The position numbers were made by a program, and so were the translations under genes. This document shows, piece by piece, positions 15,370-64,000 of a DNA stretch of 64,000 nucleotides. The stretch comes from a virus. The first letter of the stretch is position 1. Each line of letters begins with the position of its first letter. The notes beneath the pieces are model-generated. The model worked only from the letters and a program-made list of their open reading frames with translations. It did no database searches and was not told the DNA's origin. Location: the IMG/VR virus record IMGVR_UViG_3300008113_000014, positions 1 through 64,000 of that record; one strand, written 5' to 3'.

Positions 15370-18300
15370 TTATTCTGCTCCTGGAATAGTAAAGTATGGG
15401 AAGTAAGGCCCAGCAAAATAAGGTGGGAAGAATGGTCCAAAAGTAGGTGGGAAGAATGGTGGGAAGAATGGTGGGAAGAATGGTCCAAAAGTAGGTGGGA
15501 AGAATGGTGGGAAGAATGGTGCAGCCACACCCGTAGCTTGATTAACAACAGCCTGTGTTCCTGAAACGGTATTTTGATTTAATCCAACTACACTGATAGT
15601 ATATTGAGCATTAGAAACTAAACCAGTCAAAGCTCCAGAAGTGGTTGTTGTGGTAAATTTTGGGTATCCCGTAATTGAGACTGCACTACTAGTCCTAAAA
15701 ATATCAACATAAAATTGTGTAGCATTTGTTGATGACCAACTTGCTGTAAAACCATTTGAAGTAACATTTGTAATAGTAATAGCTGCTGGGCCTGATAATG
15801 TACAAAAAGACGTTGAAGAAGATACAGTATCACTAGCACTTGATATTACAGAAAGAGATGGTGAATAAATTGTATTTGCAGTCAAACCAGTTATTGATCT
15901 AGTAACCGCACTTGTTCCTGTATAAGGTGTAGATGGTGCTCCTGGAATTGATATAGAATAAGTTGATTGGTTTGTAGATCCCCACGAAAGTGTAGCAGAG
16001 GTAGCAGCAACTGCAGAAGATGAAAGTGCTGTAGATATTGTTGGAATAACCATTGATATTGATGATGCAGATCCAGTTCCTGTTGAGTTCTTTGCTCTAA
16101 CAAAAAAGTTGTTACTTCCAGATAAACCAGTTACGCTATATGTTCTTACATTTCCAATATCTGTATATCCAAGATTATTAATTTGAACTTCATAAGAAGT
16201 AACTGTGCCAGCAGGTGCGTCCCATGTAAATGTTTTTGATCCACCATTACCAGCAGATTTTGCTAAATTTGGTGGGGGCCCTGGAACTGCTGCTGATGTA
16301 GTAAATGATGACCCAGTAGTTGTTGCAGTATCTCCATTAGGTCCAGTTATTGTAAGAGTTGGGTTATAGGTTGTGCTTGGTGTTAATGCATTATTAACAG
16401 CATAAGTTGTTGCTGTAGTTCCAGTAAATGGACTTCCTGTAGCTCCTGGTATTGATAAAGAAAATGTAGATTGATTACTAGTATTATTTGTCCAGTTAAA
16501 TGCTGCACTGACTGATGTTACTGGATTTGCTGCTGGGAAAGAAGAAATAACTGGTGGAGTGAACTGTCCAGTGCTTGCTGATGAGCCTGCTCCTGAACCA
16601 TTATAAGCTCTTACCTGAAAAGTGTTTGCTCCATTAACAACTGTTAAAGCAACTGAGGTTGTTAAACCAATATCAATAAATCCAAGGTTATTAAGTTGAT
16701 ATTCATAACCAGTTGGTGTTGATCCTCCAGATGGTGCAGACCAAGTAAATGTTTTTGCTAGACCATTTCCAGTTGTTCTTTGAAGATTTGTTGGGGTTCC
16801 TGGTACTGGCGCTGCTGTAGTAAATGTTTGAGATGCTGATACAGTATCTCCAGTGCTAGATGCTACAGTCATTGTTGCCGTATAAGTTGTACTTCCAACA
16901 AACGCATTATTTATTGCATAAAATGTTCCAGAATCATTTCCAGTAAATGGTGTACCAGTAGCTCCTGGTATTGATAAAGAATAGCTTGACTGATAATTAG
17001 ATGTCCAATTAAATAAAGCTGATGTTGATGTTACTGGGCTTGGTGCTGGAAAAGTAAGAGTTGGTATAGTAAATTGTCCAGTGCTTACAGACGTTCCTGG
17101 TCCTGCTGCAGATCTTGCTCTTACTAAAAATGTTAAATTTTGCCCAGCTATATTTGTAAAAGATACAGACCTTGTTAGTCCTGTGCTTACCCAGCCTGCC
17201 CCACTTAAGTTATATTCATATGATGTAGGAGTTGTTCCAGATGATGGTGCGTCCCATGTAAATGTTTTATTTGTTCCATTGCCCAAAGTTCTTTGAAGAT
17301 TGGTTGGTGGGCCTGGTACTGGAGCAAGAGTAGTGAATGCAGTTCCTGTAACAGTGTGGGTATCTCCAGTACTAGAAGTAATTGTTAGTGTGGGAGTATA
17401 TGTTGTGCTTCCAACCAAATCTGTTGGTGGGGTAGTTGTTAGAGATTCCGTTGTTCCTGTATATGGAGAAGTTGCTCCTGCGGGAGATAAAGATAGAGAC
17501 CATGTTGCTTGATCATTAGATGCCCAATCAATTTCTGCTGCAGTAGAATTTCGTGTAAGCATAAATGGCGATGTTGTAACTCTTGGCACAGTAAATGATG
17601 GAGTTAATACAGCTGAGCTTTCAGCAGTTGGACCAACAGACTTTACTGAAAAAACATTTTGTGATCCATAGACTGTTGTTATTGAAACACTAGTTAGCAA
17701 GTTATTGCTTATCCATCCTGAATCACCAAATGGACTAGTATATCTATACTCATACCGTGTAATTGTTCCACCACCTACTGGATCTACCCAGCTAAATGTC
17801 TTTGATGTGCCATTTCCTAACGTTCTTTGTAGGTTTGTAGGTGGATTTGGAGGTGTCTGTAGTGGACCCCTAACAGCAAATTGCTTAATTCCGTAATCCA
17901 CTCCTATACTATAATCTGTTCCACTATTTTTTTGTGTGTCAACAGCATAGTAGTATGTATTTTCTGGAAGAGTAGATGGTGTAACTACAGAAGATGTTAC
18001 GGTATATATTCCTGATGATAATGTTGGAGTTGAAGTGGTTACTCCAGAAGTTACCTCTGTTCCATATGTTGCTATATTTGAAGTATTGTATGTTCCAGAT
18101 GTTGCTGTATACCACTTTACAGAGCTTCTTGTTGAGTCTGGAAGGTATTCTTGTGCACCATTCCAAGATGATGTGTAGTATAGTGTTGTAGGAAGACTAG
18201 TAACTACTCCTATTATAGATGGTGTAGTTCCAGATTTAGGCTCTGGCTCATTTCTTATTACTGGAATTCTATATCCGACACCTGTTTCTGTGTTGTCGGA

Positions 18301-18777
18301 GCTATCTTCTCCATTTGCATTGCTTGATGTTACAGCAGTAACTGTTAATAATAGATACTTACCGTCAAAGTTTGCTTGATCACACACAACAGATGCGTAT
18401 GAACCAGACATAGTTCTTTCAGATACTAAAGTTGTGTATGGACCAGTATCTAAGATCCCTGAAGTAGACCCCTCAACTTTATATCTATAAGAAGATATTG
18501 TTTCTCCATTGCCAACCCAAACACCCCTTTGTGCATAAACTGTTTCACCAAATATAATTGGATAAACAAGAGGTGAATTACCTGCAGTGTCTGATGAAAA
18601 AAATGGAGCTGTTGTTGTGTATGGTCCAGACTTTGGCCAGAATTGAACCCAGCCAGAAACCTTTTTAATAAATCCCTTTTTTACCTGTGCCCAGGTACCA
18701 CTAGTACCCCCTGGTTTTTTTACATCAAATCTTTTTACTTTGGTCCACCCAGATGGCTTCTTTGCATAAAATGGCAT
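15370..18777 (-). CDS. Fibronectin type III repeat tail/adhesin protein with C-terminal PFFP repeat
   Basis: Four tandem pairs of FN3-like domains (P.PPTNL...FTW.AP...YEY...F.VRA); ends APFFPPFFPPTFGPFFPPFFPPFFPPTFGPFFPPYFAGPYFPYFTIPGAE. Confidence 0.8.
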   Translation of the reverse strand: MPFYAKKPSGWTKVKRFDVKKPGGTSGTWAQVKKGFIKKVSGWVQFWPKSGPYTTTAPFFSSDTAGNSPLVYPIIFGETVYAQRGVWVGNGETISSYRYKVEGSTSGILDTGPYTTLVSERTMSGSYASVVCDQANFDGKYLLLTVTAVTSSNANGEDSSDNTETGVGYRIPVIRNEPEPKSGTTPSIIGVVTSLPTTLYYTSSWNGAQEYLPDSTRSSVKWYTATSGTYNTSNIATYGTEVTSGVTTSTPTLSSGIYTVTSSVVTPSTLPENTYYYAVDTQKNSGTDYSIGVDYGIKQFAVRGPLQTPPNPPTNLQRTLGNGTSKTFSWVDPVGGGTITRYEYRYTSPFGDSGWISNNLLTSVSITTVYGSQNVFSVKSVGPTAESSAVLTPSFTVPRVTTSPFMLTRNSTAAEIDWASNDQATWSLSLSPAGATSPYTGTTESLTTTPPTDLVGSTTYTPTLTITSSTGDTHTVTGTAFTTLAPVPGPPTNLQRTLGNGTNKTFTWDAPSSGTTPTSYEYNLSGAGWVSTGLTRSVSFTNIAGQNLTFLVRARSAAGPGTSVSTGQFTIPTLTFPAPSPVTSTSALFNWTSNYQSSYSLSIPGATGTPFTGNDSGTFYAINNAFVGSTTYTATMTVASSTGDTVSASQTFTTAAPVPGTPTNLQRTTGNGLAKTFTWSAPSGGSTPTGYEYQLNNLGFIDIGLTTSVALTVVNGANTFQVRAYNGSGAGSSASTGQFTPPVISSFPAANPVTSVSAAFNWTNNTSNQSTFSLSIPGATGSPFTGTTATTYAVNNALTPSTTYNPTLTITGPNGDTATTTGSSFTTSAAVPGPPPNLAKSAGNGGSKTFTWDAPAGTVTSYEVQINNLGYTDIGNVRTYSVTGLSGSNNFFVRAKNSTGTGSASSISMVIPTISTALSSSAVAATSATLSWGSTNQSTYSISIPGAPSTPYTGTSAVTRSITGLTANTIYSPSLSVISSASDTVSSSTSFCTLSGPAAITITNVTSNGFTASWSSTNATQFYVDIFRTSSAVSITGYPKFTTTTTSGALTGLVSNAQYTISVVGLNQNTVSGTQAVVNQATGVAAPFFPPFFPPTFGPFFPPFFPPFFPPTFGPFFPPYFAGPYFPYFTIPGAE
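15389..15520 (-). repeat. Coding tandem repeat (12-nt unit TGGGAAGAATGG on +) encoding PFFP
   Basis: Visible directly; includes a duplicated TCCAAAAGTAGGTGGGAAGAATGGTGGGAAGAATGG block. Confidence 0.95.
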
Positions 18778-48334: not shown

Positions 48335-48395
48335 TTTTATATACCTTTCAAAGTAAAATTAACGGAGTGCTTTATGTTCTCTAAAGCAGTACTTA

Positions 48396-48404
48396 AGTAT
48401 AACA
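48396..48404 (-). promoter_or_regulatory. Extended -10 promoter TGTTATACT
   Basis: Upstream of nrdJ, just past the terminator. Confidence 0.55.
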
Positions 48405-48410
48405 CACTTT

Positions 48411-48441
48411 AAAAAGAAAAACACGCTCATAAAGAGCGTGT
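48411..48441 (-). terminator. Intrinsic terminator between fibre gene and nrdJ
   Basis: ACACGCTC-TTTAT-GAGCGTGT followed by TTTTCTTTTT on minus strand. Confidence 0.8.
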
Positions 48442-48483
48442 AAATCTTTAGTATAGAGTTAGTACTCTATTATTTAATAAGTA

Positions 48484-51429: not shown

Positions 51430-51459
51430 TTACTTGCTCCTCCAGGTATCAGTAGTAAT

Positions 51460-51468
51460 ATTATAACA
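51460..51468 (-). promoter_or_regulatory. Extended -10 promoter TGTTATAAT
   Basis: Upstream of GGAGGAG RBS of the fibre gene. Confidence 0.6.
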
Positions 51469-51472
51469 GATT

Positions 51473-51925
51473 TTAATTGAAGTTATCAATTGAACTTCCG
51501 CCATCCCACGTTTCTGTGAATACAGTAGTATTGTATGCACCAGTTTCTATTAGTGCCCCCACTGTGTCATATGATCCACCCTCAATAAATATACTTGCAA
51601 GCATACCATTTCCATCAATAGATGTATCGTGAATATGCTCCTGCAATAATTCTGCATCTGCCATATTTGCTAAAGCAGCCCACTGATTATTATAATAAAC
51701 ATGTACTCTGTTATAAACAGTATCGTAGTACAACTGTCCATTTGTTGGACTTGCAGGAGCTGTTGATGATACAGCCATACCTCCTGTTAATGAATCTACG
51801 TACTCCTTAGTTGCTGCATGTGTTGCAATAGTAGGAGTTCCTACTGTTACCGCACCGCCGAAAGTTCCACCAAGGCCAACGATTATGCCATTCTTGACTT
51901 TAAAATCTTTGTTAACCGTTGACAC
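51473..51925 (-). CDS. Small structural/fibre adaptor protein
   Basis: N-terminus shared with 51946..53913; HAATKEYVD and APASP.NGQLYYD fibre motifs. Confidence 0.6.
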   Translation of the reverse strand: MSTVNKDFKVKNGIIVGLGGTFGGAVTVGTPTIATHAATKEYVDSLTGGMAVSSTAPASPTNGQLYYDTVYNRVHVYYNNQWAALANMADAELLQEHIHDTSIDGNGMLASIFIEGGSYDTVGALIETGAYNTTVFTETWDGGSSIDNFN

Positions 51926-51945
51926 TTGGTTTCTCCTTTGTTAGA

Positions 51946-53913
51946 TTACTTTAGTAGTGTTCCAACAACAGTGACTGTTGAGGAGTTGTTAGCAGTAGTT
52001 ACTAGAAGTTGTACATTTGATCCGCTGACGCCTGCTGATATAGTCATCGCTGAACCATTTGTTCCAATTGTTCCATACTCTGTTATTGCAATATTGTCAG
52101 CTGTATCAAGTGTTAATAAAACCTTTGATATTTCTGTATGGACTCCATAAGCGGTCTTAACCAAGAACTCTGCTGAACGATAGTCTGCCTTAGCAAAAGC
52201 GTATGCTACATTTGAAGCACTTGCTGTTGGTACAGAAATTGTTGCAGCTACCTGAGTTGCAAGAGAGTTGATATCAACTTCTGTAAAGTTTGGAACAACT
52301 GCTTCAAGAGCAGTTACTGCACGAGCATTTGTGAAGTACTTATTTGTACCTTCTGCAAGGTCAGTTGTTGTAGAATCTGCTACACCGTTTTCTGCGGTAA
52401 TAACAAGACCTGTACCTGAACCAGTGATTGTAATGTTAGTCTTTGTAGCACTAGTCAAAAGATCTGCTGCTGAAGACTTGGCACGAGCATCTGTGAAGTA
52501 TAGGCTTCCTGATTCTGCTACATCAGAAGTAACAAGTGCATCTGCGTGAGCAATTGCAGCTGCTTGTGCAGCGTTAGCCTTTGAAGTAGCGTCAGCTGCT
52601 GCTGTAGAAACTGATGCAGCATCTCCAGAAACTCTTAGTGCTGCTTCTGCAGCAACCTTTGAAGTAGCATCTGCAGCTGCAGTTGATACTGAGGCTGCAT
52701 CTCCAGAAACTCTTAGTGCTGCTTCTGCTGCTACCTTAGATGTTGCATCTGAGGCTGCGGTGCTGACTGATGCAGCATCACCTGATACTCTAAGTGCTGC
52801 TTCTGAAGCAACCTTTGCTGTTGCATCGGCTGATGCTGTTGCCTCTGCTGCTGTCTGGGCTGCGTCTGCTTCTGCCTTAGCAAATGCTGTTGTAGCAATC
52901 TGAGTTGTATCAGTATTTGCTGCTGCAGTCGGTGCTGTTGGTACACCAGTAAGCGCTGGTGAAGCAAGTGGGGCTTTTGTTCCCAAAGCTGTTGTAATAG
53001 TTGTTGTGTAATTAGCGTCATCATTAATTGCTGCTGCTAATTCATTTAATGTATTAAGAAGTGCTGGTGCACCATCAACAAGATTATCTACTGCGGTTCC
53101 AATTGCTGTGTTGCGGTTTGTAACTTCTGTTGCAATTGCTGCTGAGATTGCTGATGCACTTGCTGACGCTGCTGCGTCAATTGCTTCCGTCTTGGCAGTT
53201 GCTACGTTTGCAGTAGTTGCAAGAAGAGCCGTGTTTGCAATTCCATGAACGTTTGTTGTGTCTGATTCGTGTGAAGAAAGTGCTGCTGCAGCTGTTGCCT
53301 CTGCTGCTGCTTGAGCGGCGTTGGCCTTAGATGTTGCATCTGCTGATGCAGTTGCTACTGAGGCTGAGTCGCCTGATACTCTAAGTGCTGCTTCTGCAGC
53401 GACTTTAGATGTAGCGTCTGATGCTGCTGTTGCTTCTGCTGCAGTTTTAGCTGCTGCTGCTGCACCGTATGCGTCATAAGTATTTGCTGTTACAGATACT
53501 GCACCTGTTGAATCATTATATGAAAGACCAGTTCCAACATTGTTTCCAATGGCATCTTGTGCTCTTTCATCTGTGAAGTAAAGGTTTGTTCCTTCTGCAA
53601 GATCTGCAGTGTCATGGTTTGAAAGGCTTGAAACTGTTCCAGTTACGTCACCTGTTACGTTGCCTGTTAAATTACCAGTTACGTTACCTGTTAAGGCTGC
53701 TGTAACTGTTCCTGCTGCAAAGTTACCATTAGCATCACGCTTTACAACTGTGTTTGCAGTGTTAGCAGATGTTGATGTACCGCCAATAAGACCAACTATG
53801 TAGTCTTGATCTGCTTGCTTCTTTGTAAGAATGTCAAAATTGTTGACTGTAGCTGTTGTACCTTCAACAATGAGCCCATTCTTTACCTTAAAGTCTTTAT
53901 TTACTGTTGCCAT
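51946..53913 (-). CDS. Ala-rich coiled-coil fibre protein
   Basis: EGTNLYFTD.RA and LNTLNELAAAI motifs; 26-aa repeats; C-terminal EYGTI domain. Confidence 0.7.
   Translation of the reverse strand: MATVNKDFKVKNGLIVEGTTATVNNFDILTKKQADQDYIVGLIGGTSTSANTANTVVKRDANGNFAAGTVTAALTGNVTGNLTGNVTGDVTGTVSSLSNHDTADLAEGTNLYFTDERAQDAIGNNVGTGLSYNDSTGAVSVTANTYDAYGAAAAAKTAAEATAASDATSKVAAEAALRVSGDSASVATASADATSKANAAQAAAEATAAAALSSHESDTTNVHGIANTALLATTANVATAKTEAIDAAASASASAISAAIATEVTNRNTAIGTAVDNLVDGAPALLNTLNELAAAINDDANYTTTITTALGTKAPLASPALTGVPTAPTAAANTDTTQIATTAFAKAEADAAQTAAEATASADATAKVASEAALRVSGDAASVSTAASDATSKVAAEAALRVSGDAASVSTAAADATSKVAAEAALRVSGDAASVSTAAADATSKANAAQAAAIAHADALVTSDVAESGSLYFTDARAKSSAADLLTSATKTNITITGSGTGLVITAENGVADSTTTDLAEGTNKYFTNARAVTALEAVVPNFTEVDINSLATQVAATISVPTASASNVAYAFAKADYRSAEFLVKTAYGVHTEISKVLLTLDTADNIAITEYGTIGTNGSAMTISAGVSGSNVQLLVTTANNSSTVTVVGTLLK
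52575..52830 (-). repeat. 78-nt coding tandem repeat (DATSKVAAEAALRVSGDAASVSTAAA)
   Basis: Three consecutive copies plus a fourth near 53330-53420. Confidence 0.85.
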
Positions 53914-54401: not shown

Positions 54402-54626
54402 TCAAAGTATATAGTTACTAAAGCCAATAATTTGCAACGGGATTGGTACAACAGTAGATAAACCACTAGCCTCAATCCGTATTGCTGTTAATCTAATTCT
54501 AAAGGGTAAAACAGAGTTAATTGTAACATTTTTACTTGGTGCCCTGACAGATGCTTTTATTGAAAGATCTTGTTCAATTCTTTTTGTAAATACTGGCTGC
54601 TTGTCATAAATCTTAACATTAGCCAT
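54402..54626 (-). CDS. Hypothetical protein
   Basis: Coupled ORF. Confidence 0.6.
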   Translation of the reverse strand: MANVKIYDKQPVFTKRIEQDLSIKASVRAPSKNVTINSVLPFRIRLTAIRIEASGLSTVVPIPLQIIGFSNYIL

Positions 54627-55039
54627 TATGCAGTCACATCTTCAAGGACAATAAGTTTGCCTTGAGCTACCGTCCAAACTATTGCATCTTGCGGTAAAGA
54701 AACCTCAATATCAAAAATATCATTTGTTCGTAGTGTTGCAGTTTGTGCTGGTGATAATGAAACAGTAAACTCACCATCTAGATCATCTGCATCTTGAATT
54801 GGAACTAAGGTTAAAAGAAGTGTTGCTGTGTCTGTTATTTCTCCAGGAACAACTGGTGTTGTAGTAGGACGCTTGATCTGCATAGAAATATTCCAGTCAG
54901 GAATTTCCAATGGTACTTTTGCATCATCTGTTAAATAAACCTTAAATGCTGCACTATCTCCCTTGACAAAAGTCCAATTAACGAATGGTGGAGCTTCTCC
55001 AATATCGTATGTAGACGCTTGTCCTCTATATGTAGCCAT
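54626..55039 (-). CDS. Putative virion structural protein (BppU-N-like beta sandwich)
   Basis: KGDSA.F.V..D.....W....QIK...FDIEV....TVAQG....EDVT; start MATYRG behind a promoter. Confidence 0.55.
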   Translation of the reverse strand: MATYRGQASTYDIGEAPPFVNWTFVKGDSAAFKVYLTDDAKVPLEIPDWNISMQIKRPTTTPVVPGEITDTATLLLTLVPIQDADDLDGEFTVSLSPAQTATLRTNDIFDIEVSLPQDAIVWTVAQGKLIVLEDVTA

Positions 55040-55045
55040 TTTTAT

Positions 55046-55054
55046 ATTATACCA
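55046..55054 (-). promoter_or_regulatory. Extended -10 promoter TGGTATAAT (leaderless)
   Basis: 6 nt before the ATG at 55039. Confidence 0.65.
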
Positions 55055-55110
55055 CGATGAAAATAAGAAATTAAGAGATTTAAAATAATTTAAATAAATA
55101 TCACAAAAAC

Positions 55111-55140
55111 TTGCTTTTTGGGGAATTTGGATGCTATACT
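55111..55140 (+). promoter_or_regulatory. Sigma70-type promoter for the transglycosylase
   Basis: TTGCTT-18 nt-TATACT with TGn extension; followed by hairpin TGCTACC-AACT-GGTAGCA and GGAGG RBS. Confidence 0.6.
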
Positions 55141-55191
55141 TAGAGAGTGCTACCAACTGGTAGCATCTTTAGTCTCTAGGAGGTTATTATT

Positions 55192-55764
55192 ATGAGAAGA
55201 GATAAGAAGGTTTGGATTGGAATCCTTGCACTACTTGGGTTGGTTGCTCCTTTGAGTAATTCAGCCAATGCTTTAAATACCGAAAATAATCTAAGTAAAA
55301 CAGAAGTTCTTGCTATGCCAACCGCCAAAGCGGTTTTTTTGCTTTCTAAGCCTAAAAGTCTGGTAGCAGTAAAAAAAGACTTAAACGTTCTGCACAAGTA
55401 TCAAGATGCCATTAGTCTGACAGATCGTCAACTAAAGGAACTTCTTCATGCCGTTGGTTTCCGTGGAGAGGGCCTTGTAAAAGCTTGGGCGGTAGCTAAG
55501 AAAGAATCTAATGGTCGTCCAATGGCTTTTAATGGTAATGAAAAGACTGGGGACAATTCTTATGGTATATTCCAGATAAATATGATTGGAATGCTAAAGG
55601 ATGGTCGCAAAGAAAAGTTTGGCATTAACTTTAACAGTGAATTGTTAAACCCTGTTATTAATGCACAGGTTGCCTATCATATGAGTAATGGTGGTAAAGA
55701 TTGGTCTGCTTGGCATGGAATAACGCCAAAGACTAAGGTTTGGATGAAGAAGTTTCCTATTTAA
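55192..55764 (+). CDS. Secreted lysozyme-fold lytic transglycosylase (SLT/Rpf-like)
   Basis: Signal peptide; AVAKKESNG (catalytic Glu), SYGIFQIN, L.NP..NA..A, DWSAW. Confidence 0.85.
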   Translation: MRRDKKVWIGILALLGLVAPLSNSANALNTENNLSKTEVLAMPTAKAVFLLSKPKSLVAVKKDLNVLHKYQDAISLTDRQLKELLHAVGFRGEGLVKAWAVAKKESNGRPMAFNGNEKTGDNSYGIFQINMIGMLKDGRKEKFGINFNSELLNPVINAQVAYHMSNGGKDWSAWHGITPKTKVWMKKFPI

Positions 55765-56348
55765 AAAGGAAGATCTTTATTTAACGTTACTGGGTATTCG
55801 TCATTACCCCTCATAAAGATAGTTGAAAAATATCTTGTAGTATCATTTAGGACTGGTAATGAGCCATGCAGTATTTCTCCTCCGTGAATAAGGGCAGATC
55901 CTGCTTTTGGTTTAATTGTTATTCCTAATTCTGGATAGTCAATCTCTCCACCAAGATAGTCATTATTATAGTAAATTACGATGCCGTATCCAAGATAATA
56001 CCCTTGTGGGGTTGTGTCATTATCACGATGCTGACCAATTGCTTCTTCCTCTTTAAATCTAGATATTTTTATTTCTTTTTCACAGTAATAATATGATGGG
56101 AATATGTAATCAACTTTATCAAAAATAGCAGTCTTGCAAAATTCATTATTTTCACCAAGGAATAAGCTTTTGCCATACCAAAAATCATTCTCATCACCAA
56201 TATAGTTTTTGTCATGCCATTGATCTTCAGTTGCTTGATTAATAATAGCCAAAATTGACTCTAGCTCTAAAGAATCTAAAAAGTTTTCAATTTCATAAAC
56301 ATCTTCAGCAAGTTTGTTAATTTTAAAATTATACATAGGGCTAACCAA
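55761..56348 (-). CDS. 2OG-Fe(II) oxygenase, prolyl-hydroxylase-like
   Basis: HRD...YYNNDYLGGE...H..L.V....R. Confidence 0.88.
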   Translation of the reverse strand: MVSPMYNFKINKLAEDVYEIENFLDSLELESILAIINQATEDQWHDKNYIGDENDFWYGKSLFLGENNEFCKTAIFDKVDYIFPSYYYCEKEIKISRFKEEEAIGQHRDNDTTPQGYYLGYGIVIYYNNDYLGGEIDYPELGITIKPKAGSALIHGGEILHGSLPVLNDTTRYFSTIFMRGNDEYPVTLNKDLPF

Positions 56349-57009
56349 ATTTACTACTATTAATATGATTTAGCTCAATATGATTAATGTTAACATGGCT
56401 TGGTAGATCAGATACCCAGCGAATGCACTCTGCCATATCCTCAGCGGTAATAGCACTATCACGTCTTTCTTCTTGTGTATCAATTGTGCCTGGACAAATT
56501 TCAGTTATTTTAATACCATATTGAGGAAATTCTAGCCTCATTGTATCTACCAATGCCATCTGACCTCTTTTAGCATTAATGTAATTGCCTCCAGAACGGT
56601 ACGGAACCTTACCACCCAATGAGCTAACAAAAATAATGGTTGGGTTAGTGGACTTTTCCATTGCTGGTACAAATAACTGAGAAATATACATTGGCCCTGT
56701 TACATTAATATCATATGCAATTCTAAAGTTTGCTGGTGTTTCATTAATAATCATTGTTGGACTAGATCCACCACCTGCATTATTAACTAGCAAGTCTAAA
56801 GTGATGTCTTTATATTTTTCAGCAAATAGTTTTATTTGGTCAGAGTCTGTAACATCTATCTGATAAATTTCAACATTGTCTGAAACAAGGTCTAACATTT
56901 TAGAGATATTTCTTGATGCTGCGATTACCTTGTATCCACTTTTTTCAAGAAGCTTTACGGTTGCTCTTCCAACACCCTTGCTTGCTCCAGTAACTATTGC
57001 TGTTTTCAA
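56341..57009 (-). CDS. Short-chain dehydrogenase/reductase (YdfG-like)
   Basis: TGASKGVG, NNAG, S...YINAK, PG. Confidence 0.92.
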   Translation of the reverse strand: MKTAIVTGASKGVGRATVKLLEKSGYKVIAASRNISKMLDLVSDNVEIYQIDVTDSDQIKLFAEKYKDITLDLLVNNAGGGSSPTMIINETPANFRIAYDINVTGPMYISQLFVPAMEKSTNPTIIFVSSLGGKVPYRSGGNYINAKRGQMALVDTMRLEFPQYGIKITEICPGTIDTQEERRDSAITAEDMAECIRWVSDLPSHVNINHIELNHINSSKFG

Positions 57010-57741
57010 TTACATGCTCTGACTAGAATTAAGGCTCATGTGGTTATGAATCCAGTGACCAGGAACCATAAACTTATACCCAGACTTAACTACGTGTGCT
57101 GTGTGAAAGTATGGAGCGTATGCTGGAAATATAACAACGCTATTTGCTTTAGGTTTTAAACCAAAATCAATAGATTTATCAGCAACTGCAACATCATAGT
57201 CTAAGTCTACTGCTGGAGCACCTCTTACCCATCCATCAGAACTTGTCCATCCTCCATCATAATCTTTTAGCTGGAAAGAGATTTCTCCACCCTCACAGTC
57301 ATCATTGAGGTACATGACTAAAGAATATCTTAGGGTTTGGTCTCCATCTAATTGATCAAAGTGTGCCCCCATGCCCATTCCAGTATTATATTTTTTTATA
57401 TTAAAGGTTGGAAAAAGCCTTGGCTCATCAAAATCCCCCAAAGAAGATGCGTAGTCTTTGCAAACATTGTACATCGTAGTCATAATAGCGTCATATATAT
57501 ATTTACTTTTTTCTGCTACTTCTCCACTAAGGTTGTTTATTGCGTTTACGTCAAATGTTTTTGTTTCTCCATAAATAAAAGTTTTGTCGTTAGAAGATGT
57601 CCAAGGGTTCCAAACATTTACACCTAACTCACTGTATTGCTCAAGAGTATCTAGATCTTTCCAAACCTTTTTAAAGGTATCAAAATCTTCTATTGCATCA
57701 GTATAGTAATAAGTTTTTGGATCTAGTTTTTCTACGTTCAC
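57010..57741 (-). CDS. 2OG-Fe(II) oxygenase, prolyl-hydroxylase-like
   Basis: HFD...YLNDDCEGGE...H....V.SG.K. Confidence 0.88.
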   Translation of the reverse strand: MNVEKLDPKTYYYTDAIEDFDTFKKVWKDLDTLEQYSELGVNVWNPWTSSNDKTFIYGETKTFDVNAINNLSGEVAEKSKYIYDAIMTTMYNVCKDYASSLGDFDEPRLFPTFNIKKYNTGMGMGAHFDQLDGDQTLRYSLVMYLNDDCEGGEISFQLKDYDGGWTSSDGWVRGAPAVDLDYDVAVADKSIDFGLKPKANSVVIFPAYAPYFHTAHVVKSGYKFMVPGHWIHNHMSLNSSQSM

Positions 57742-57750
57742 CTGTTCTCC

Positions 57751-58422
57751 TTAGTATTTGTTGTTTTCATAGTGGTTTTTTTCTTTAATAAATCCTACTA
57801 TAACATATCTTATTGGTCCTTCTCCAACATGCTTTACTCCATGCTCGTGCTTATTGTCCCCTGGAAAAAACAACAAGTCTTTTGGCTTTGGTCTTAATGA
57901 TATTCCAAGATTTGGAAAGAACAGCTCTCCTTCTACATAGTCATCATTTATATATATAATTGTTGCATATTTTATTGATGGGTCTGTATGCTGATCTGTA
58001 TGAGATTTTAGTTCAACTCCTTTTTGCATTCTTTGAATTGTTGCTAATCCACTTAACATTAATAAAGGATCTGAATCATCAACCATTGTTGATAATCTTT
58101 TATAAAAAACTTGCTGCTCTTTATGATGCTTTATGTTTAAATTTTTATCTGCCCAGTTTTGTGTGATTTCAAATTTTCCTTCAGCAACAAGGTTGTCTAC
58201 ATCATCTCTTCCAAACTTTTCCATACAAAATCTAGCAAGATTTGTTGTATATTCTATTTCCCAGTCTGCTTGTGATGCATTATCTATGCATTTTAAAACA
58301 AAGTCTAGATCTTCATTTGTAAAAAAATCTTTAATCCAAAGAATTTCATCTGTAACTTCTTCAAATACAAAATTATTTTCTTTAAGTTTTTCTTTAAACT
58401 TTTCAAGCATTTGGCACCTCAT
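57751..58422 (-). CDS. 2OG-Fe(II) oxygenase, prolyl-hydroxylase-like
   Basis: HTD...YINDDYVEGE...HGV..V..G..R. Confidence 0.88.
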   Translation of the reverse strand: MRCQMLEKFKEKLKENNFVFEEVTDEILWIKDFFTNEDLDFVLKCIDNASQADWEIEYTTNLARFCMEKFGRDDVDNLVAEGKFEITQNWADKNLNIKHHKEQQVFYKRLSTMVDDSDPLLMLSGLATIQRMQKGVELKSHTDQHTDPSIKYATIIYINDDYVEGELFFPNLGISLRPKPKDLLFFPGDNKHEHGVKHVGEGPIRYVIVGFIKEKNHYENNKY

Positions 58423-59158
58423 TAGAGTTATACTTATTTCCGTCCTTGTCTAGCTTCCAGCCTTGCTTAAGCAATTCTTGCCATTCTGCTCTTTCAATTT
58501 CTTGTTTTGCTCTAGTTTCTTTCATTTCTGCAGCCCAGGCATCTCTTAATTCTTGTGGGTATGCATCTTCTTCTCTGTCGTCCCAAAAAGAACCAATTGT
58601 ATATCTAACTCCCTTAGTAATAAGGCTTACCTCGTGCATGTTATTAAATCCACCATCAAAAGCAGCAAGCATTCCAACTTTAGGTTGTAGACTTATCTCT
58701 TGATCTGGGAACTGTAACATTCCACCATCAAAGTCATCGTTCAAATATAAGAATGCTGCATATCTACTTCTTGTAAATGCACCAGAGTGTCCGTGTTCGT
58801 CTGTGTTGTCAGAGTGTTTTCTTGCATACGCTCCTGGCTCCCACTTTTGTGTGTGATAACCAATTTGAGAAATTATTTTTGGATCAAGGTCGTGAACGCT
58901 TGCAACTGCATCAATAATTCCTTGTTTTATTTGTGAAAATATGTCACTTGGCAATCCTTCATTCTTTACATGCTCGTCGTCATCTTGTGGTAAAACAGAA
59001 GAGTATGATTCATAAAAAGATATAGGCATCCAGGTAATCAATTCAAGTTCTGCATGCTTGTCTAAAACTTTTACAAGTTTAGCAGCAGTTTCTGAATCAA
59101 TAAAGTTTTCATAAACAACAATGTCTTTTGTTATTCTAGTTTTATTGGTTAAGTTCAT
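58403..59158 (-). CDS. 2OG-Fe(II) oxygenase, prolyl-hydroxylase-like
   Basis: HSD...YLNDDFDGG...HEV..I..G.R. Confidence 0.88.
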   Translation of the reverse strand: MNLTNKTRITKDIVVYENFIDSETAAKLVKVLDKHAELELITWMPISFYESYSSVLPQDDDEHVKNEGLPSDIFSQIKQGIIDAVASVHDLDPKIISQIGYHTQKWEPGAYARKHSDNTDEHGHSGAFTRSRYAAFLYLNDDFDGGMLQFPDQEISLQPKVGMLAAFDGGFNNMHEVSLITKGVRYTIGSFWDDREEDAYPQELRDAWAAEMKETRAKQEIERAEWQELLKQGWKLDKDGNKYNSNEVPNA

Positions 59159-60027
59159 TTTATTCTCACAGCTCCCTCTATCTCATTTCTTTGTGGGTTG
59201 TCTATTCTAAACTGCTCGTTCAGCTTTGGTTGCATGCTAGACCAAACATCTTTTCCAAATTCTTTTTCTTTCTCATACCATTCATCTGTTCCTTTTTGAT
59301 ATTTTTGCCAATACATTCTTGCTAAAAATTTGTTTTTGTTATAAGACGGCATAACCCCATGTAAGTATGGTTTGTCATCCTCTGTTAAGTAATCTGGGTG
59401 TCCTGATGGAAAAACTAAAAGATCTCCAGCTTCTGGCTTGTACTTAACAAGTTTGTCTCCCATAGCAAAGTCAATTTCTCCACCTTCATAGTCATCATTA
59501 AAATAAATTGTACATGTTATTATAAACTTATATCCTGGAGCAGATCCTTGCTCTCTCATATAGTCTGAATGATATCTCATTCCATGTTGTTCTTCTTCGT
59601 TGCTGATATGATACTTTCCTATTGTTCCACCTGTCCATCTCCAGGTTGGAATAAGATCGCCTGATTCGTCTATGGACAATGACTCTAAATCTACATCAAT
59701 GTTATATTTTTTAATATAGTCTTCTGTAACTAAATGAAAGTTTTTCATCATTTCTATACCAAATTGTTTTTGGTTTTCTTCAATTTCTGTTTTTGTTTCA
59801 ATGCTTTCTAAACCTCCATCTTTATAATCCATAGAAAAAGAAGGTGTCATTGGATTTAAATATTCTCCAAAAATAGACCACTTTGTCCAAGGATTAAAAA
59901 GTCTATCTTCTGACTCTATTAAAGAATCTGTTAAAACCTTATAAGATTTTGAAATATCTTTAAACATGTTTTTATAAACAAGAATATGTGGATATATCTC
60001 TACAGATTCAAGAGCTGGAGTAGTCAT
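59155..60027 (-). CDS. 2OG-Fe(II) oxygenase, prolyl-hydroxylase-like
   Basis: HSD...YFNDDYEGGE...HGV.P.....K. Confidence 0.88.
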   Translation of the reverse strand: MTTPALESVEIYPHILVYKNMFKDISKSYKVLTDSLIESEDRLFNPWTKWSIFGEYLNPMTPSFSMDYKDGGLESIETKTEIEENQKQFGIEMMKNFHLVTEDYIKKYNIDVDLESLSIDESGDLIPTWRWTGGTIGKYHISNEEEQHGMRYHSDYMREQGSAPGYKFIITCTIYFNDDYEGGEIDFAMGDKLVKYKPEAGDLLVFPSGHPDYLTEDDKPYLHGVMPSYNKNKFLARMYWQKYQKGTDEWYEKEKEFGKDVWSSMQPKLNEQFRIDNPQRNEIEGAVRIK

Positions 60028-60702
60028 TTATGGTTTCCTGTCTCCAGTGTGCTCTGTAATTTCCCAGAAAAATGGGCATGTAAATCTTAATCCACTCTTT
60101 ATCTCAGTCACTCCGTGAATATAGTTTTTGTCTCCTGGGAAGAAGTAAGCTGCACCTTTTTTTGGTTTAAACTGTACACCTTGTAGTGGGAAATACAGTT
60201 CTCCTCCCTCATAGTCTTCATTTAAATAGAACAAACTAGATAAATCATAATTAGGAAAATCGTTTGGAAGTCCAGCGTCTGGGCCATCGTGAAGTTCTTT
60301 GTCTGCGTGAGGTTTTTGAAATTGTCCTGGAAGCCACTTTACTATAGTGGTACCTGTAGGGATAACCTTTACTTTGTAAAACTCTTCTACTATTGGTTGT
60401 AGTCTTTGAAATAGTCCAGCAATGACTGGGGAAATGTTTGGATCGTTTTTATCTAGGCTTGGTTGAGTTGCTACTCTATCTTTCCAATAATCAGAATCAT
60501 AAACAACCGTTCCATTTTCATTAACATGACTTTGTGTTACATCCCAAATTGTCAAAGATTTTGCAGATTTTTCTAAAAACTCTATTTCTTCTTGAGTCAT
60601 AAAGTTTTCTAGCTCAACGATCATGTCTTTGCTATCACCAAACCAGCCAGATGGTGTGAGTGAAGCCTTTCTAACTACAACAGAAGCATCCATTTTATCC
60701 AT
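60028..60702 (-). CDS. 2OG-Fe(II) oxygenase, prolyl-hydroxylase-like
   Basis: HAD...YLNEDYEGGE...HGV..I.SG.R. Confidence 0.88.
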   Translation of the reverse strand: MDKMDASVVVRKASLTPSGWFGDSKDMIVELENFMTQEEIEFLEKSAKSLTIWDVTQSHVNENGTVVYDSDYWKDRVATQPSLDKNDPNISPVIAGLFQRLQPIVEEFYKVKVIPTGTTIVKWLPGQFQKPHADKELHDGPDAGLPNDFPNYDLSSLFYLNEDYEGGELYFPLQGVQFKPKKGAAYFFPGDKNYIHGVTEIKSGLRFTCPFFWEITEHTGDRKP

Positions 60703-60704
60703 AA

Positions 60705-61433
60705 TTAGATTATACCATTTCCCTTGTTTGATGTATTATCAGTAACAGAAAGACGTAAAACCTTAGTTTCGTGAGAACCCGTACTTTCACCTTTTTCATT
60801 TACTGCATCTCTATACCAGTCAGTCCATTGTCCAGACTTGTTGATTTCTTGTGCAGCTTCACCATACGACTGATGAGCCATCTGCCTTTTTCTATCTACA
60901 TCTGAATAATCAATTATTTGAATTGATGTATTGTCCATTGCCGTCAAAGAAATTGGAATTATTGTAGCAATTGGGGTTCCTGCTTTTATAGTAATTTCCT
61001 TGTTTGCAGATCTTGCTTTAATTGCTAATGGAAAACCAGTATCAAGCCAAGATGTAGATATTAAAGATGACATTGTTTCAAAATCATCATTAAAGTAATT
61101 AACTGGATTAATTGTAAGCATGCTAACGTTTTGCTCAGATCTAAAAGTTAGGCCAGTATGTAGGCTAACTGTAGACTGCCCTCTTCCAGTATATGTAAAG
61201 TCTGAACCTTCTAGTATAGTTACATTCTCTGAACTTGTATCATTTATACCGTTCCAAATAAACTTAATGTCTTCAGTACATGAAAGACTCCAGCCAACCA
61301 TATTCGCTTGTGTAACTGGAAAACATCTATAGGCATGCTTTTCTGGAGTTACATCCATCCAATCTCTTTTAATTGACATTGGAGAAAGTATGATTTTTGA
61401 ATCTGGAAATCTTTCAGCTGATATATTAAGCAT
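60705..61433 (-). CDS. DUF6065-like protein
   Basis: RDWMD.TP..HAYRCFP...AN..GW and AGTP.A.IIP motifs. Confidence 0.7.
   Translation of the reverse strand: MLNISAERFPDSKIILSPMSIKRDWMDVTPEKHAYRCFPVTQANMVGWSLSCTEDIKFIWNGINDTSSENVTILEGSDFTYTGRGQSTVSLHTGLTFRSEQNVSMLTINPVNYFNDDFETMSSLISTSWLDTGFPLAIKARSANKEITIKAGTPIATIIPISLTAMDNTSIQIIDYSDVDRKRQMAHQSYGEAAQEINKSGQWTDWYRDAVNEKGESTGSHETKVLRLSVTDNTSNKGNGII
60709..60717 (-). promoter_or_regulatory. Extended -10 promoter TGGTATAAT (leaderless) inside the oxygenase block
   Basis: 6 nt before the ATG at 60702. Confidence 0.6.
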
Positions 61434-62089
61434 TAGTCTTTGTCTACCATATACATTTCGTTAGTGTGAAACTTTTTGTTATAATCAAGCATTGTTACAA
61501 TAGAATACTTTGTTCCTGAAATAACTGGCATTGCACGATGAGGATACATGAAGTTTGATGGAAAAATAAATAAATCTCCTGCATCTGCCTTAATGTCTAG
61601 GTTCTGGAGTCTAAAGAAAAGTGAACCGCCTTCATAGTCATCATTTGGGTATGCAACAAGTGACACTGTGCAGTTATAAGAAAAACCATGATCATGGTGT
61701 TCTTGAAAGTGTTGTCCTGGTCCATATTTAATAAAATTAAAAGCTTCCCAATACTTTAAATCCATTATGTTGTAGTCTTTTCTGTAATCATCAACACATG
61801 GAGACTTAACATCATATAGATCTTGCCAAAGCTCTTGTAGTTTTATTGAGTCTGGTGTTTTGTTTTGTTCAATATCAGTTTTCTTATACTTAAAATCTAC
61901 ACAGTCTCTGTAGTCTGGAATTAGCTGCTGGTATCCAACATATGCTGGTTGCCAAGTAAATTGTTCTTTTGAACCTAGTGGCTTTACAACAGATTCAATT
62001 CTGTTTATCACATCAATATCTTTATTAATGACACCTTTATAGCATACAATACCATTACCATAGTTAACCTTTTCTGTCCAAGTTTGCAT
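61433..62089 (-). CDS. 2OG-Fe(II) oxygenase, prolyl-hydroxylase-like
   Basis: HHD...YPNDDYEGG...FPSNFMYPH...PV.SGTKY. Confidence 0.9.
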   Translation of the reverse strand: MQTWTEKVNYGNGIVCYKGVINKDIDVINRIESVVKPLGSKEQFTWQPAYVGYQQLIPDYRDCVDFKYKKTDIEQNKTPDSIKLQELWQDLYDVKSPCVDDYRKDYNIMDLKYWEAFNFIKYGPGQHFQEHHDHGFSYNCTVSLVAYPNDDYEGGSLFFRLQNLDIKADAGDLFIFPSNFMYPHRAMPVISGTKYSIVTMLDYNKKFHTNEMYMVDKD

Positions 62090-62097
62090 TTTTCTCC

Positions 62098-62874
62098 CTA
62101 TTTATATTCTCTTCTAGACCAAACTTTATTTTTATAAATACCGCCGTCTGGTTGGCGATAAAAATTTGCATTGGCTATCATTTTAGCATATATCTTTTCT
62201 TGATTTTGAAACTCTATCTCATGGCTCCAGTTTTCTCTTTTAAATGGTAAAATTTGGACATATGGAGTCCCTGCTGGTATTGTTCCTTCCCAGCCTTCTG
62301 CAATAAAAAATGGAAAGGTACCAAGCAGGTGAACACTGTCATTATCAACAACACCAGTTGTATTAATAAATGGAAGATCAAATCTATTCATAGGTGTCAT
62401 AAATAATGCACTATATCCTTCTGGAAGTTCAAATCCCCAATCTGGATACCAGGCAAAATGATCTTTGTAAAATCCTTTTGGGTGCTCAAACTGTGGCATA
62501 GCAAGTCTTTTTCCACAAAAATCTTGATGTCTTTTATCTTCTATCTTAACATCTATTGATCCTGTCTCAGTTTTAAAAAAAGTAAGGTCACAAGGAGTTC
62601 TTAATACATATCCTGTTGAAAACCCATCCATAATTGCTGGACAAGCTTTCCATGTAGGTATTTTTCCATAGTCATCTGTAGTTCCTTCTTTTGGAAAAGG
62701 ACAAACTTCTTTTGGTGCTTTGTAGTATTCACCAGTTGGCATTTTTGCAAATCTGTCGGCATCTTTATACCATTGTGGTATTTCAGACTGTGTTGTTTTA
62801 GGCACTGATTTACTATCCTTGTTTAACCAAGGCCTAAAAGATCTAAAGATTACTAAATTATCTTTTAGACTCAT
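62098..62874 (-). CDS. DUF6065-like protein
   Basis: PQWYK, K.CPA..D....GY, PEGYS.L...P.N, GVVD.D, AGTP..QI.PFKR. Confidence 0.6.
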   Translation of the reverse strand: MSLKDNLVIFRSFRPWLNKDSKSVPKTTQSEIPQWYKDADRFAKMPTGEYYKAPKEVCPFPKEGTTDDYGKIPTWKACPAIMDGFSTGYVLRTPCDLTFFKTETGSIDVKIEDKRHQDFCGKRLAMPQFEHPKGFYKDHFAWYPDWGFELPEGYSALFMTPMNRFDLPFINTTGVVDNDSVHLLGTFPFFIAEGWEGTIPAGTPYVQILPFKRENWSHEIEFQNQEKIYAKMIANANFYRQPDGGIYKNKVWSRREYK

Positions 62875-63586
62875 GATGATGCCCTAATAAATTAATATCT
62901 GTCATAATTACAACACAATATTTTGTTCCAGATATCATTGGAAGAGATGCATGTTCATATATATAGTTTGATGGGAAAATTGCTATGTCTCCAACTTTTG
63001 GTGTTAGTGTGTATCCATCTAATCTTGGAAATTTAATTTCTCCACCTTCGTAGTCGTCATTTATATATATAACTGCAGAAACTGTAGTATTGTATGCTGG
63101 TCCATGGTCGGCATGAATATTAAAGTGCTTACCCTGTCCCTCATACTTTACAAAATTAAAAGCTTCATAGTATATAACATTTATTCCCCAATATTTTGCA
63201 TAGTCATCTATGCATAGTTTTAATTTTTGATAAATCTCTTCGTGTAAATCAATTAGTTCACCATTAAACTCATCTCGTGGACCAAGATTTTCTTGCTTAT
63301 ATCTAAAATCTACAGCATCTCTTGCTTTTTTTATTGGTGTAGTAGCATTGGTTACTTGTGCTTCTGACCACTTATACTTTCTACCATTAGACAAATTGGA
63401 CTCAAGAATATTGATGTATCTTTTAGAGTCCTCCAAAGAAAACGTATTTCTGTATATATTTAATCCAAGTCCTGGATTTTCTATTACAATATTTTTTTCA
63501 GATATATCTCTATTAACCCTATTTGATACAGTCTCAGATCTATCTTTAGTAAACCATGGGTTTTCATTTTCATCATAAGTGTTCAT
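62858..63586 (-). CDS. 2OG-Fe(II) oxygenase, prolyl-hydroxylase-like
   Basis: HAD...YINDDYEGGE...FPSNYIYEH...P..SGTKY. Confidence 0.9.
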   Translation of the reverse strand: MNTYDENENPWFTKDRSETVSNRVNRDISEKNIVIENPGLGLNIYRNTFSLEDSKRYINILESNLSNGRKYKWSEAQVTNATTPIKKARDAVDFRYKQENLGPRDEFNGELIDLHEEIYQKLKLCIDDYAKYWGINVIYYEAFNFVKYEGQGKHFNIHADHGPAYNTTVSAVIYINDDYEGGEIKFPRLDGYTLTPKVGDIAIFPSNYIYEHASLPMISGTKYCVVIMTDINLLGHHHESKR

Positions 63587-63605
63587 CTTTATCCCCTTTT
63601 TATTT

Positions 63606-63634
63606 ATTATACACTACCTTTATCTTTTTGTAAA
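63606..63634 (-). promoter_or_regulatory. Sigma70-type promoter of the oxygenase block
   Basis: TTTACA-17 nt-TATAAT on minus strand, then AGGGG RBS. Confidence 0.65.
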
Positions 63635-63687
63635 CAAAAACAACCCTTGTTGCAAGTATTTTGCAAGACATGAATGATAGCACTCAT

Positions 63688-63716
63688 AAAACACAAAAGG
63701 CCAAACAATGTTGGCC
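63688..63716 (-). terminator. Probable intrinsic terminator after the PFFP-repeat gene
   Basis: GGCCAA-6 nt-TTGGCC followed by TTTTGTGTTTT on minus strand. Confidence 0.6.
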
Positions 63717-63739
63717 AATTGTATTACTTCTTTTTTATT

Positions 63740-64000
63740 TTACTGTACACCTGGAAGTGTAAAGTATGGGAAGTAAGGGTTATTTGCAGGGAAGTATGGG
63801 AAGTACGGTGGGAAGAATGGGAAGTAAGGGAAGTAAGGGAAGAATGGAGGGAAGAATGGGAAGAACGGGAAGTAAGGGAAGAAAGGTGGGAAGAACGGGA
63901 AGTATGGGAAGAACGGGAAGAAAGGTGGGAAGAACGGGAAGAATGGGAAGAACGGAAAGAAAGGTGGGAAAAATGGTGGGAAGAATGGGAAGAACGGTGG
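63740..64000 (-). CDS. 3' end of a gene encoding a Pro/Phe/Tyr-only repeat (start outside window; not in ORF track)
   Basis: Manual translation ...PPFFPFFPPFFPPFFPFFPFFPFFPPFFPFFPYFPFFPPFFPYFPFFPFFPPFFPYFPYFPFFPPYFPYFPANNPYFPYFTLPGVQ-stop; synonymous variation in Pro codons. Confidence 0.85.
   Translation of the reverse strand, partial: PPFFPFFPPFFPPFFPFFPFFPFFPPFFPFFPYFPFFPPFFPYFPFFPFFPPFFPYFPYFPFFPPYFPYFPANNPYFPYFTLPGVQ

Follow-up and report, generated by a model that had tools for sequence, protein, structure and literature searches.

Genes for 2-oxoglutarate (2OG)-dependent oxygenases abound in aquatic viromes, and to our knowledge the phage enzymes have been without a known function for some 20 years. 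The locus described here raises the question of what such enzymes act upon, since eight of them follow a gene that ends in a long run of proline, phenylalanine and tyrosine codons. It lies at positions 55,761 to 64,000 of the window, by which we mean the whole 64,000-nucleotide stretch that was analysed; the window covers bases 1-64000 of the IMG/VR virus record IMGVR_UViG_3300008113_000014, a genome of 108,863 bp rated 100% complete by CheckV. The original prediction, made from the letters of the window, had viewed the locus as a tailoring line hydroxylating the repeat and similar in layout to a ribosomally synthesized and post-translationally modified peptide (RiPP) cluster. Our own answer is a tentative one: a mobile module in which hydroxylases of the prolyl 4-hydroxylase (P4H) family, aided by partners with a dUTPase fold, would modify the Pro/Phe tails of virion fibres, a reading that we prefer while holding it to be possible rather than probable. 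Modification of the tails by the enzymes is proposed because the whole set of genes travels together between unrelated phages.

As predicted, 11 tightly packed open reading frames (ORFs) occupy the minus strand from 55761 to 63586. They are transcribed in the order ox8, dufb, ox7, DUF6065a, ox6, ox5, ox4, ox3, ox2, SDR and ox1, where ox1 to ox8 are the oxygenases, dufb and DUF6065a two DUF6065-like proteins and SDR a short-chain dehydrogenase/reductase; the repeat gene, here called FN3-PFFP, stands upstream of them (Table 1). This linkage is strict. Among 80 loci selected by means of dufb, 52 have at least 1.5 kb of upstream sequence, and in every one of these 52 an ORF with a P/F/Y run lies upstream on the same strand and ends within 2.5 kb. 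A search of viral contigs with the repeat protein returned at least 145 relatives, the ordered enzyme block being found downstream in nearly all loci with room for it, and a search with the repeat DNA pattern added at least 119 more stretches, almost all of them in FN3 proteins and most of them with ox8 as the next gene. Sixteen of 20 repeat-bearing records contain dufb, the other four being fragments that are 25-50% complete, and three phages with an FN3 homologue devoid of the repeat, including one complete 40-kb genome, are also devoid of PF13640 genes. The test of co-occurrence and adjacency suggested in the original prediction has therefore given a strongly positive result. Gene order within the cluster is strongly conserved (18 architectures in 51 distinct clusters), and the repeat gene remains upstream where ox4, ox6 or ox7 is the first enzyme gene. 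Since the module-bearing phages are kin (INDEPENDENCE), these locus counts overstate the evidence.

The same module is encountered in different phage backbones. Capsid identity is 74-90% in some of the module-bearing phages and 38-43% in others, and the module is also present in a complete genome of 100.8 kb (the record of locus L038) that has no detectable capsid, portal or large-terminase homology to this phage. What that genome shares is an Mtd-like fibre gene together with the FN3-PFFP gene and the enzymes, and the genes flanking this block on either side are unrelated; the mobile unit therefore comprises fibre, repeat and enzymes, and is neither the enzymes alone nor the enzymes with replication genes. 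The L038 enzymes are 62-90% identical to those of the window, ox6 reaching 90%, except for ox2 (42%) and ox1 (31%), the FN3 part of the repeat protein is 45% identical and the fibre match stands at 48%.

At the window edge, the repeat ORF forms the C-terminal part of a 321-residue protein, whose full gene spans genome positions 63740-64705 and which is composed of two FN3-like domains (fn3 7.2e-8, Pfam) followed by about 115 residues of PPFF, PFF and PYF units. The ESM Atlas clusters nearest to this protein are viral FN3 proteins. A repeat of at least 70 Pro, Phe and Tyr residues had been claimed; it is real and in fact longer, with 100 consecutive P/F/Y residues encoded at genome positions 63788-64087. 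Other reading frames across the repeat are also open, and the PFFP frame is taken as coding because it runs on from the FN3 domains and has been preserved in 172 distinct homologous tails. These tails are 15-292 residues long (median 61) and consist of 51% Phe, 43% Pro and 1.8% Tyr, arranged in 1521 PPFF, 1339 PFF, 94 PYF and 85 PPYF units. The first aromatic residue is the sole variable position of the units, and the F-P junction is therefore constant. Contigs from lake metagenomes display 3-nt insertions and duplications of 42 or 96 nt within the repeat, and otherwise just assembly breaks. In one lake run, the summed contig depth over the repeat (L006:784-1044, corresponding to genome positions 63784-64044) reached 1100-1600 against about 17 on the flanks, so that Pro/Phe-repeat DNA of many phages was abundant in that run.

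In relatives, the tail is followed by a Cys-rich tip (61 cases), by nothing (56), by a basic helix (10) or by a Hint-like end terminating in HNK (9); in this phage the tail has no tip. Because the tips are exchangeable, the tail behaves as a spacer leading from the FN3 domains to the tip. The Cys-rich tips, which close about one third of the tails, measure 25-45 residues with 6-10 cysteines (for example L064:970-2181, L091, L114 and L130) and have a knottin-like look and no Pfam match. The Hint-like domains end in VHNK, match Hint_2 weakly (1.6e-4; L027:6101-7477, L057, L072 and L084) and hint at autoprocessing or ligation at the tail end. A second tail-bearing protein of 1135 residues is encoded in the window; it carries the same type of tail and the same PYFPYFT(I/L)PG end as the FN3-PFFP protein, and its gene is the last in the row of tail genes and lies 40 kb away from the enzymes. 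The isolate phage collection yielded no match to the FN3-PFFP protein, though BLAST masks the low-complexity repeat, and a search of open-access papers and preprints turned up no natural PFFP/PPFF repeat protein or (PPFF/PFF)n polymer.

An alignment of the paralogues confirmed that all eight oxygenases possess the HxD motif, the distal His and the following Arg or Lys, that is, the intact iron triad and 2OG-binding basic residue previously attributed to them, and it also revealed a common P4H-type YxNDDYEGGE strand motif. Seven of the eight match PF13640 (2OG-FeII_Oxy_3) at 36.6-47.6 bits for a cut-off of 27, and ox1 remains below it at 23.3 bits. They are 19-25% identical among themselves and represent distinct orthologues without recent duplication. 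Among solved structures, the paralogue profile matches best a bacterial P4H (5hv0, 2e-12), then P3H1 (1.7e-10) and PKHD-type hydroxylases; further matches are P4H 5c5t (1.3e-7), EGLN1 (about 1e-5), Tet-like enzymes (1.4e-4) and the lysyl hydroxylase LH3, and ox8 as a lone query ranks the solved relatives in the same way. By these comparisons the oxygenases fall in the peptidyl prolyl/lysyl hydroxylase branch, and the predicted peptidyl-proline hydroxylase activity draws its support from the fact that the nearest solved relatives are protein hydroxylases. Several of the oxygenases give in addition weak, sub-threshold Tet_JBP matches in Pfam. The SDR had been correctly recognized: it matches PF00106 (1.5e-39) and carries the TGxxxGxG cofactor motif and the YxxxK catalytic motif of classical members, and we can only guess at its role in the line.

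Both DUF6065-like proteins had been predicted as such. DUF6065a is a true member of the Pfam family (PF19541, 1.8e-31, 109.9 bits for a cut-off of 26.6). A Pfam scan of dufb and 27 of its orthologues returned no match, and dufb is tied to the DUF6065a profile by hhalign (probability 40%, E 3e-4, 133 columns) and by an identical predicted fold. With AlphaFold2 models of pLDDT 85.7 (DUF6065a) and 82.2 (dufb), Foldseek reported 41 dUTPase/dCTP-deaminase matches at E<1e-3 for DUF6065a and weaker matches for dufb. VIA-align gave Z 11.0 and a root-mean-square deviation of 2.6 Å over 115 residues for the former, and Z 9.0 and 2.7 Å over 124 residues for the latter; the top 22-23 rows all belong to the dUTPase superfamily or to known relatives of its fold (herpesvirus dUTPase-derived proteins, TLP20), and the next unrelated folds appear at Z of about 4 or lower. 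As modelled, both proteins have the beta-barrel (jelly-roll) fold of the trimeric dUTPases and dCTP deaminases. Even at E 10, no Pfam dUTPase signal was obtained in the DUF6065 or dufb members scanned. Inspection by eye offers a lead in the form of the strings G.VETDW and KGEPI in the DUF6065 consensus and GVVDND and AGTP..Q in dufb, which resemble what we take to be dUTPase motifs 3 and 4.

Clustering at 50% identity divides the large DUF6065 family into 1356 clusters, and the long forms in it are fusion proteins: four join an N-terminal DUF6065 to a C-terminal PF13640 domain, two combine a sulfotransferase with DUF6065 and one carries TPR repeats. Three of the four DUF6065-PF13640 proteins have ox6 as the nearest match of their oxygenase half (E about 1e-21), and in the window the ox6 gene comes directly after DUF6065a; on this Rosetta-stone reading DUF6065a would work with ox6, and position suggests a similar partnership of dufb with ox7, a physical pairing being inferred in both cases. 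No loci were recovered for the fusion proteins P0170 among viral contigs and P0235 among genome contigs. Stand-alone bacterial DUF6065 genes (Planctomycetota, Gemmatimonadota and others) have no PF13640 neighbour in 80 loci, from which ORFs were kept up to 8 kb on each side, and their recurrent neighbours are housekeeping genes; the partnership is therefore specific to a subset of the family. The dUTPase fold and the fusions to oxygenases and sulfotransferases leave room for non-protein substrates. A literature search on DUF6065 found nothing. In 49 records of haloarchaeal tailed viruses, distant homologues of dufb (24-31% identity) stand as lone genes; in Halophage HF1 (L203, record positions 48119-49003), the homologue lies between a ribonucleotide reductase gene and baseplate/virion-protein genes, with no oxygenase nearby. 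In one relative, a small DUF6171-like ORF (L038:11365-11607) sits between the repeat gene and ox8, and one long DUF6065 protein matches DUF6171 weakly (0.0022).

Table 1. Features of the module and of the second tail-bearing gene, in window coordinates.
Feature	Position	Strand	Description
FN3-PFFP gene, 3' end	63740..64000	(-)	two FN3-like domains, then PPFF/PFF/PYF tail ending ..PYFPYFTLPGVQ
Terminator-like hairpin and T-run	63699..63716	(-)	after the FN3-PFFP stop
Promoter-like TTTACA-17-TATAAT	63606..63634	(-)	in front of ox8, 11/12 match
ox8	62858..63586	(-)	P4H-type 2OG oxygenase, HAD...H...K; usually heads the enzyme genes that follow the repeat gene
dufb	62098..62874	(-)	remote DUF6065 relative, predicted dUTPase-like fold, no Pfam hit
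ox7	61433..62089	(-)	P4H-type 2OG oxygenase
DUF6065a	60705..61433	(-)	PF19541, predicted dUTPase-like fold; gene order as in DUF6065-oxygenase fusions
ox6	60028..60702	(-)	P4H-type; closest to the oxygenase domain of 3/4 DUF6065 fusions
ox5	59155..60027	(-)	P4H-type; missing in about 1/3 of relatives' clusters
ox4	58403..59158	(-)	P4H-type oxygenase
ox3	57751..58422	(-)	P4H-type oxygenase
ox2	57010..57741	(-)	P4H-type; 32-aa insertion in barrel
SDR	56341..57009	(-)	PF00106 1.5e-39; TGASKGVG, YINAK
ox1	55761..56348	(-)	divergent 2OG oxygenase, below Pfam cut-off, triad intact
Second tail-bearing protein	15370..18777	(-)	1135 aa, many FN3 repeats, ends ..PFFPPYFAGPYFPYFTIPGAE

The enzyme block is bordered on one side by tail-fibre genes of the same strand (48484-53913) and on the other by the FN3-PFFP gene, which adjoins receptor-binding fibre genes, and a collagen-like gene. 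The latter (genome 64746-65456), directly upstream of the FN3-PFFP gene, encodes a protein with a G-X-Y repeat that matches PF01391 (2.9e-7, 30.6 bits for a cut-off of 27.2). An SLT/lysozyme-like gene (window 55192-55764, plus strand; SLT_3 7.7e-17), whose product has a hydrophobic N-terminal stretch, abuts ox1 on the opposite strand. Two small paralogous proteins (window 54626-55156 and genome 65553-65954; 25% identity, E 1e-8) flank a block that comprises the lysozyme, FN3-PFFP and collagen-like genes as well as the enzymes. Beyond the window, the regions 84046-88474 and 98560-100378 of the genome encode a TauD-family dioxygenase, a GT2 glycosyltransferase, a MobA-like NTP-transferase and an APS-kinase-like protein, together with two more PF13640-like proteins, one of them without the first His of the triad. 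A glutathione-peroxidase-like gene (PF00255, 3e-10) is found at genome positions 101543-102298, distant from the cluster; an orthologue 62% identical to it lies inside the oxygenase cluster, in the gap between ox6 and ox4, in two other loci (L036:15320-16090 and L038:15190-15960). At the end of the record (genome 106375-108486), a 703-residue protein combines a PA14 domain with PT repeats. The stretch 55761-64000 was found in lake and freshwater sequencing runs from about 12 studies, and the habitat, judged from the runs containing most of it, is freshwater or lake. No RNA runs were among those listed for the stretch, and the isolate phage collection matched neither the cluster at the DNA level nor DUF6065a.

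How could these genes work together? Gene content, catalytic residues, folds, fusions and co-inheritance are the observations described above, and from them we infer a substrate, a chemistry and the pairing of DUF6065 proteins with oxygenases. The eight Fe(II)/2OG oxygenases would hydroxylate peptidyl proline, and possibly the beta-carbons of Phe and Tyr, in the PPFF/PFF tails; they might also act in trans on the 1135-residue tail protein and perhaps on the neighbouring collagen-like protein. DUF6065a, for ox6, and dufb, for ox7, would assist as subunits, either as partners or in handling the substrate, and the SDR might oxidise or reduce a hydroxylated product. In this way a very hydrophobic Pro/Phe rod would be converted into a hydrogen-bonding, soluble or adhesive appendage. 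The place of the module among tail-fibre genes, the short spacers of many relatives, the DUF6065-PF13640 fusions and the PBCV-1 precedent described below also speak for this reading. A bolder version, in which freshwater phages would make a hitherto unknown structural biopolymer as eight specialised hydroxylases turn the (PPFF/PFF)n rod into an 'aromatic collagen' rich in hydroxyproline (Hyp), and possibly in beta-hydroxy-Phe, on tail appendages with DUF6065 as a new class of obligate P4H partner, is speculative and in our view unlikely. The tailoring line originally predicted has gained from the linkage tests and from the peptidyl-hydroxylase branch and has lost its likeness to RiPP clusters. 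A RiPP cluster was rejected because a short leader-core precursor is lacking, the candidate substrate being a structural-type protein of 321 residues with two FN3 domains; no RiPP recognition element, protease or exporter is encoded among the 11 ORFs.

A number of points weigh against modification of the tails by the module. Nothing directly identifies a substrate. The linked cases may all go back to a single ancestral arrangement, and since the moving block carries fibre genes too, hitch-hiking could account for the linkage. The modelled dUTPase fold, along with the sulfotransferase fusions, suggests nucleotide or small-molecule ligands, and an SDR is unexpected in a protein-hydroxylation line. 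The presence or absence of ox1, ox2, ox3 and ox5 was found to be unrelated to Tyr content, tail composition or Cys-rich tips. In this phage, the repeat gene is set apart from the enzymes by the terminator-like hairpin and T-run, which come directly behind the FN3-PFFP stop codon, and by a strong promoter-like site. This caveat had been raised from the outset and stands for the present genome, but it extends to close relatives only: of 51 distinct short spacers in relatives, 18 contain a terminator-like site and 6 a promoter-like site, and many relatives have a spacer of 25-100 nt with no terminator-like hairpin. Finally, cyanophages possess several PF13640 genes without any such repeat protein (PMC3037559).

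Several of these points favour the main rival reading, an accessory island installed at the usual cargo site beside fibre and lysis genes. Its enzymes would target a small molecule or host proteins, in the manner of the unexplained multi-copy 2OG oxygenases of cyanophages, with the repeat gene as a constant neighbour. The block has its own promoter-like site after the terminator-like hairpin, includes an SDR, houses a glutathione-peroxidase-like gene in L036 and L038 and adjoins the SLT lysozyme gene on the opposite strand, and the genome encodes more 2OG/TauD oxygenases, a GT2 enzyme, an NTP-transferase and an APS kinase elsewhere. Conservation across backbones, which counts against the tails as substrate, speaks for such an island as well, as nine of ten enzyme genes keep 42-90% identity (ox1, 31%), whereas the FN3 part keeps 45% and the fibre match 48%. 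Moreover, the closest homologues from isolates are the cyanophage 2OG-Fe(II) oxygenases, at 25-40% identity and of unknown function (PMC3037559). We nevertheless consider the island somewhat less likely than the fibre module, given that the repeat gene is directly upstream in all 52 dufb-selected loci without exception and stays adjacent in rearranged clusters, that the block moves with fibre genes and not with metabolic genes, and that the nearest solved relatives of the enzymes are protein hydroxylases.

If the substrates are proteins, they could also be virion fibres other than the Pro/Phe repeat, namely the collagen-repeat protein, the Mtd-like fibres or the variable C-terminal tips. The collagen-repeat gene is indeed the direct upstream neighbour of FN3-PFFP, the closest solved enzymes act on collagen-type sequences, and many tails bear Cys-rich or Hint-like tips. 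The collagen-like protein is, however, unlikely to be the main substrate because its gene is missing from loci with a full cluster and 10 kb of upstream sequence (L036 and L038), and the first two locus sets count 42 collagen-like ORFs against 125 ox8 ORFs. Tips are variable or absent, as in this phage, whereas the Pro/Phe repeat is constant, and on balance we regard these other fibres as improbable targets. Least probable of all appears a modification of nucleotides or phage DNA, for which the dUTPase-fold proteins would act as (deoxy)nucleotide binders while the oxygenases would hydroxylate bases or sugars. The dUTPase/dCTP-deaminase fold predicted for both DUF6065-like proteins, the motif-like strings seen by eye in the DUF6065 consensus and the sub-threshold Tet_JBP matches of several oxygenases would agree with it. 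Yet the oxygenases are PF13640 proteins whose Tet-like matches rank far below P4Hs, the DUF6065 and dufb-type members scanned are devoid of Pfam dUTPase signal, enzymatically inactive dUTPase-fold proteins are known (herpesvirus tegument proteins are among the fold matches), and the cluster belongs to a fibre module, with which it moves, far from replication genes.

What the module provides is a concrete, testable candidate substrate encoded next to phage 2OG oxygenases. It is also common, with 1882 clusters of the dufb-type family at 90% identity and with lake and freshwater runs from about 12 studies that contain the stretch. If the tails are modified, it would be the first system of a prokaryotic virus that hydroxylates virion proteins post-translationally, a natural counterpart of the synthetic materials built from Pro-Phe-Phe or Hyp-Phe-Phe and a source of regio-diverse peptidyl hydroxylases. 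Independently of the substrate, the predicted dUTPase fold and the oxygenase fusions of DUF6065 offer a first handle on a widespread uncharacterised family.

The theme of a viral P4H and proline repeats is already known, and the present module is a fresh version of it. The P4H of PBCV-1 hydroxylates virus-encoded Pro-rich repeats in vitro (PMC3634087), so that in both cases the virus encodes a P4H-family 2OG oxygenase as well as Pro-rich repeat proteins. PBCV-1 relies on one enzyme and polar repeats (Pro-Ala-Pro-Lys); here, with a prokaryotic host, eight distinct paralogues are accompanied by an SDR and two proteins of predicted dUTPase fold, Pro and Phe make up 94% of the repeat, and enzymes and repeat gene are strictly adjacent. 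The collagen hydroxylases (Bacillus P4H 5hv0/3itq, P3H1, LH3 and the viral lysyl hydroxylase 6ax6), which are the best matches among solved structures, have the HxD...H triad in common with the ox proteins, as well as the YxNDDYEGGE-type strand motif. The similarity is limited to the catalytic barrel (profile E 2e-12 at best) and, unlike these enzymes, the ox proteins have no peptide-substrate-binding domain, PDI subunit or glycosyltransferase domain. T4-like cyanophages resemble this phage in carrying several PF13640 genes per aquatic phage genome, at 25-40% identity, but there up to about five copies are scattered, as opposed to an ordered block of 10-11 genes here; their 2OG-Fe(II) oxygenases are of unknown function, with 2OG balance or DNA repair suggested (PMC3037559). 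What sets the DUF6065-like proteins apart from dUTPases and dCTP deaminases is an additional helical part at the C-terminus and the lack of a recognisable Gly-rich motif-5 arm, and DUF6065 is fused to oxygenases or sulfotransferases instead of being placed in nucleotide metabolism.

With RiPP clusters the module has in common a candidate substrate gene followed by a row of tailoring enzymes, the difference being that this candidate is an FN3 protein of structural type and 250-570 residues. Plant extensins and mussel foot proteins are repetitive structural proteins, rich in Hyp or DOPA, whose material properties depend on hydroxylation, and together with synthetic Pro-Phe-Phe they recall the PFFP tails by their repetitive Pro/aromatic sequence. 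Collagen-like helical aromatic zippers form when Pro-Phe-Phe self-assembles, and the hydrogen-bond network becomes tighter with Hyp-Phe-Phe (PMC8113556).

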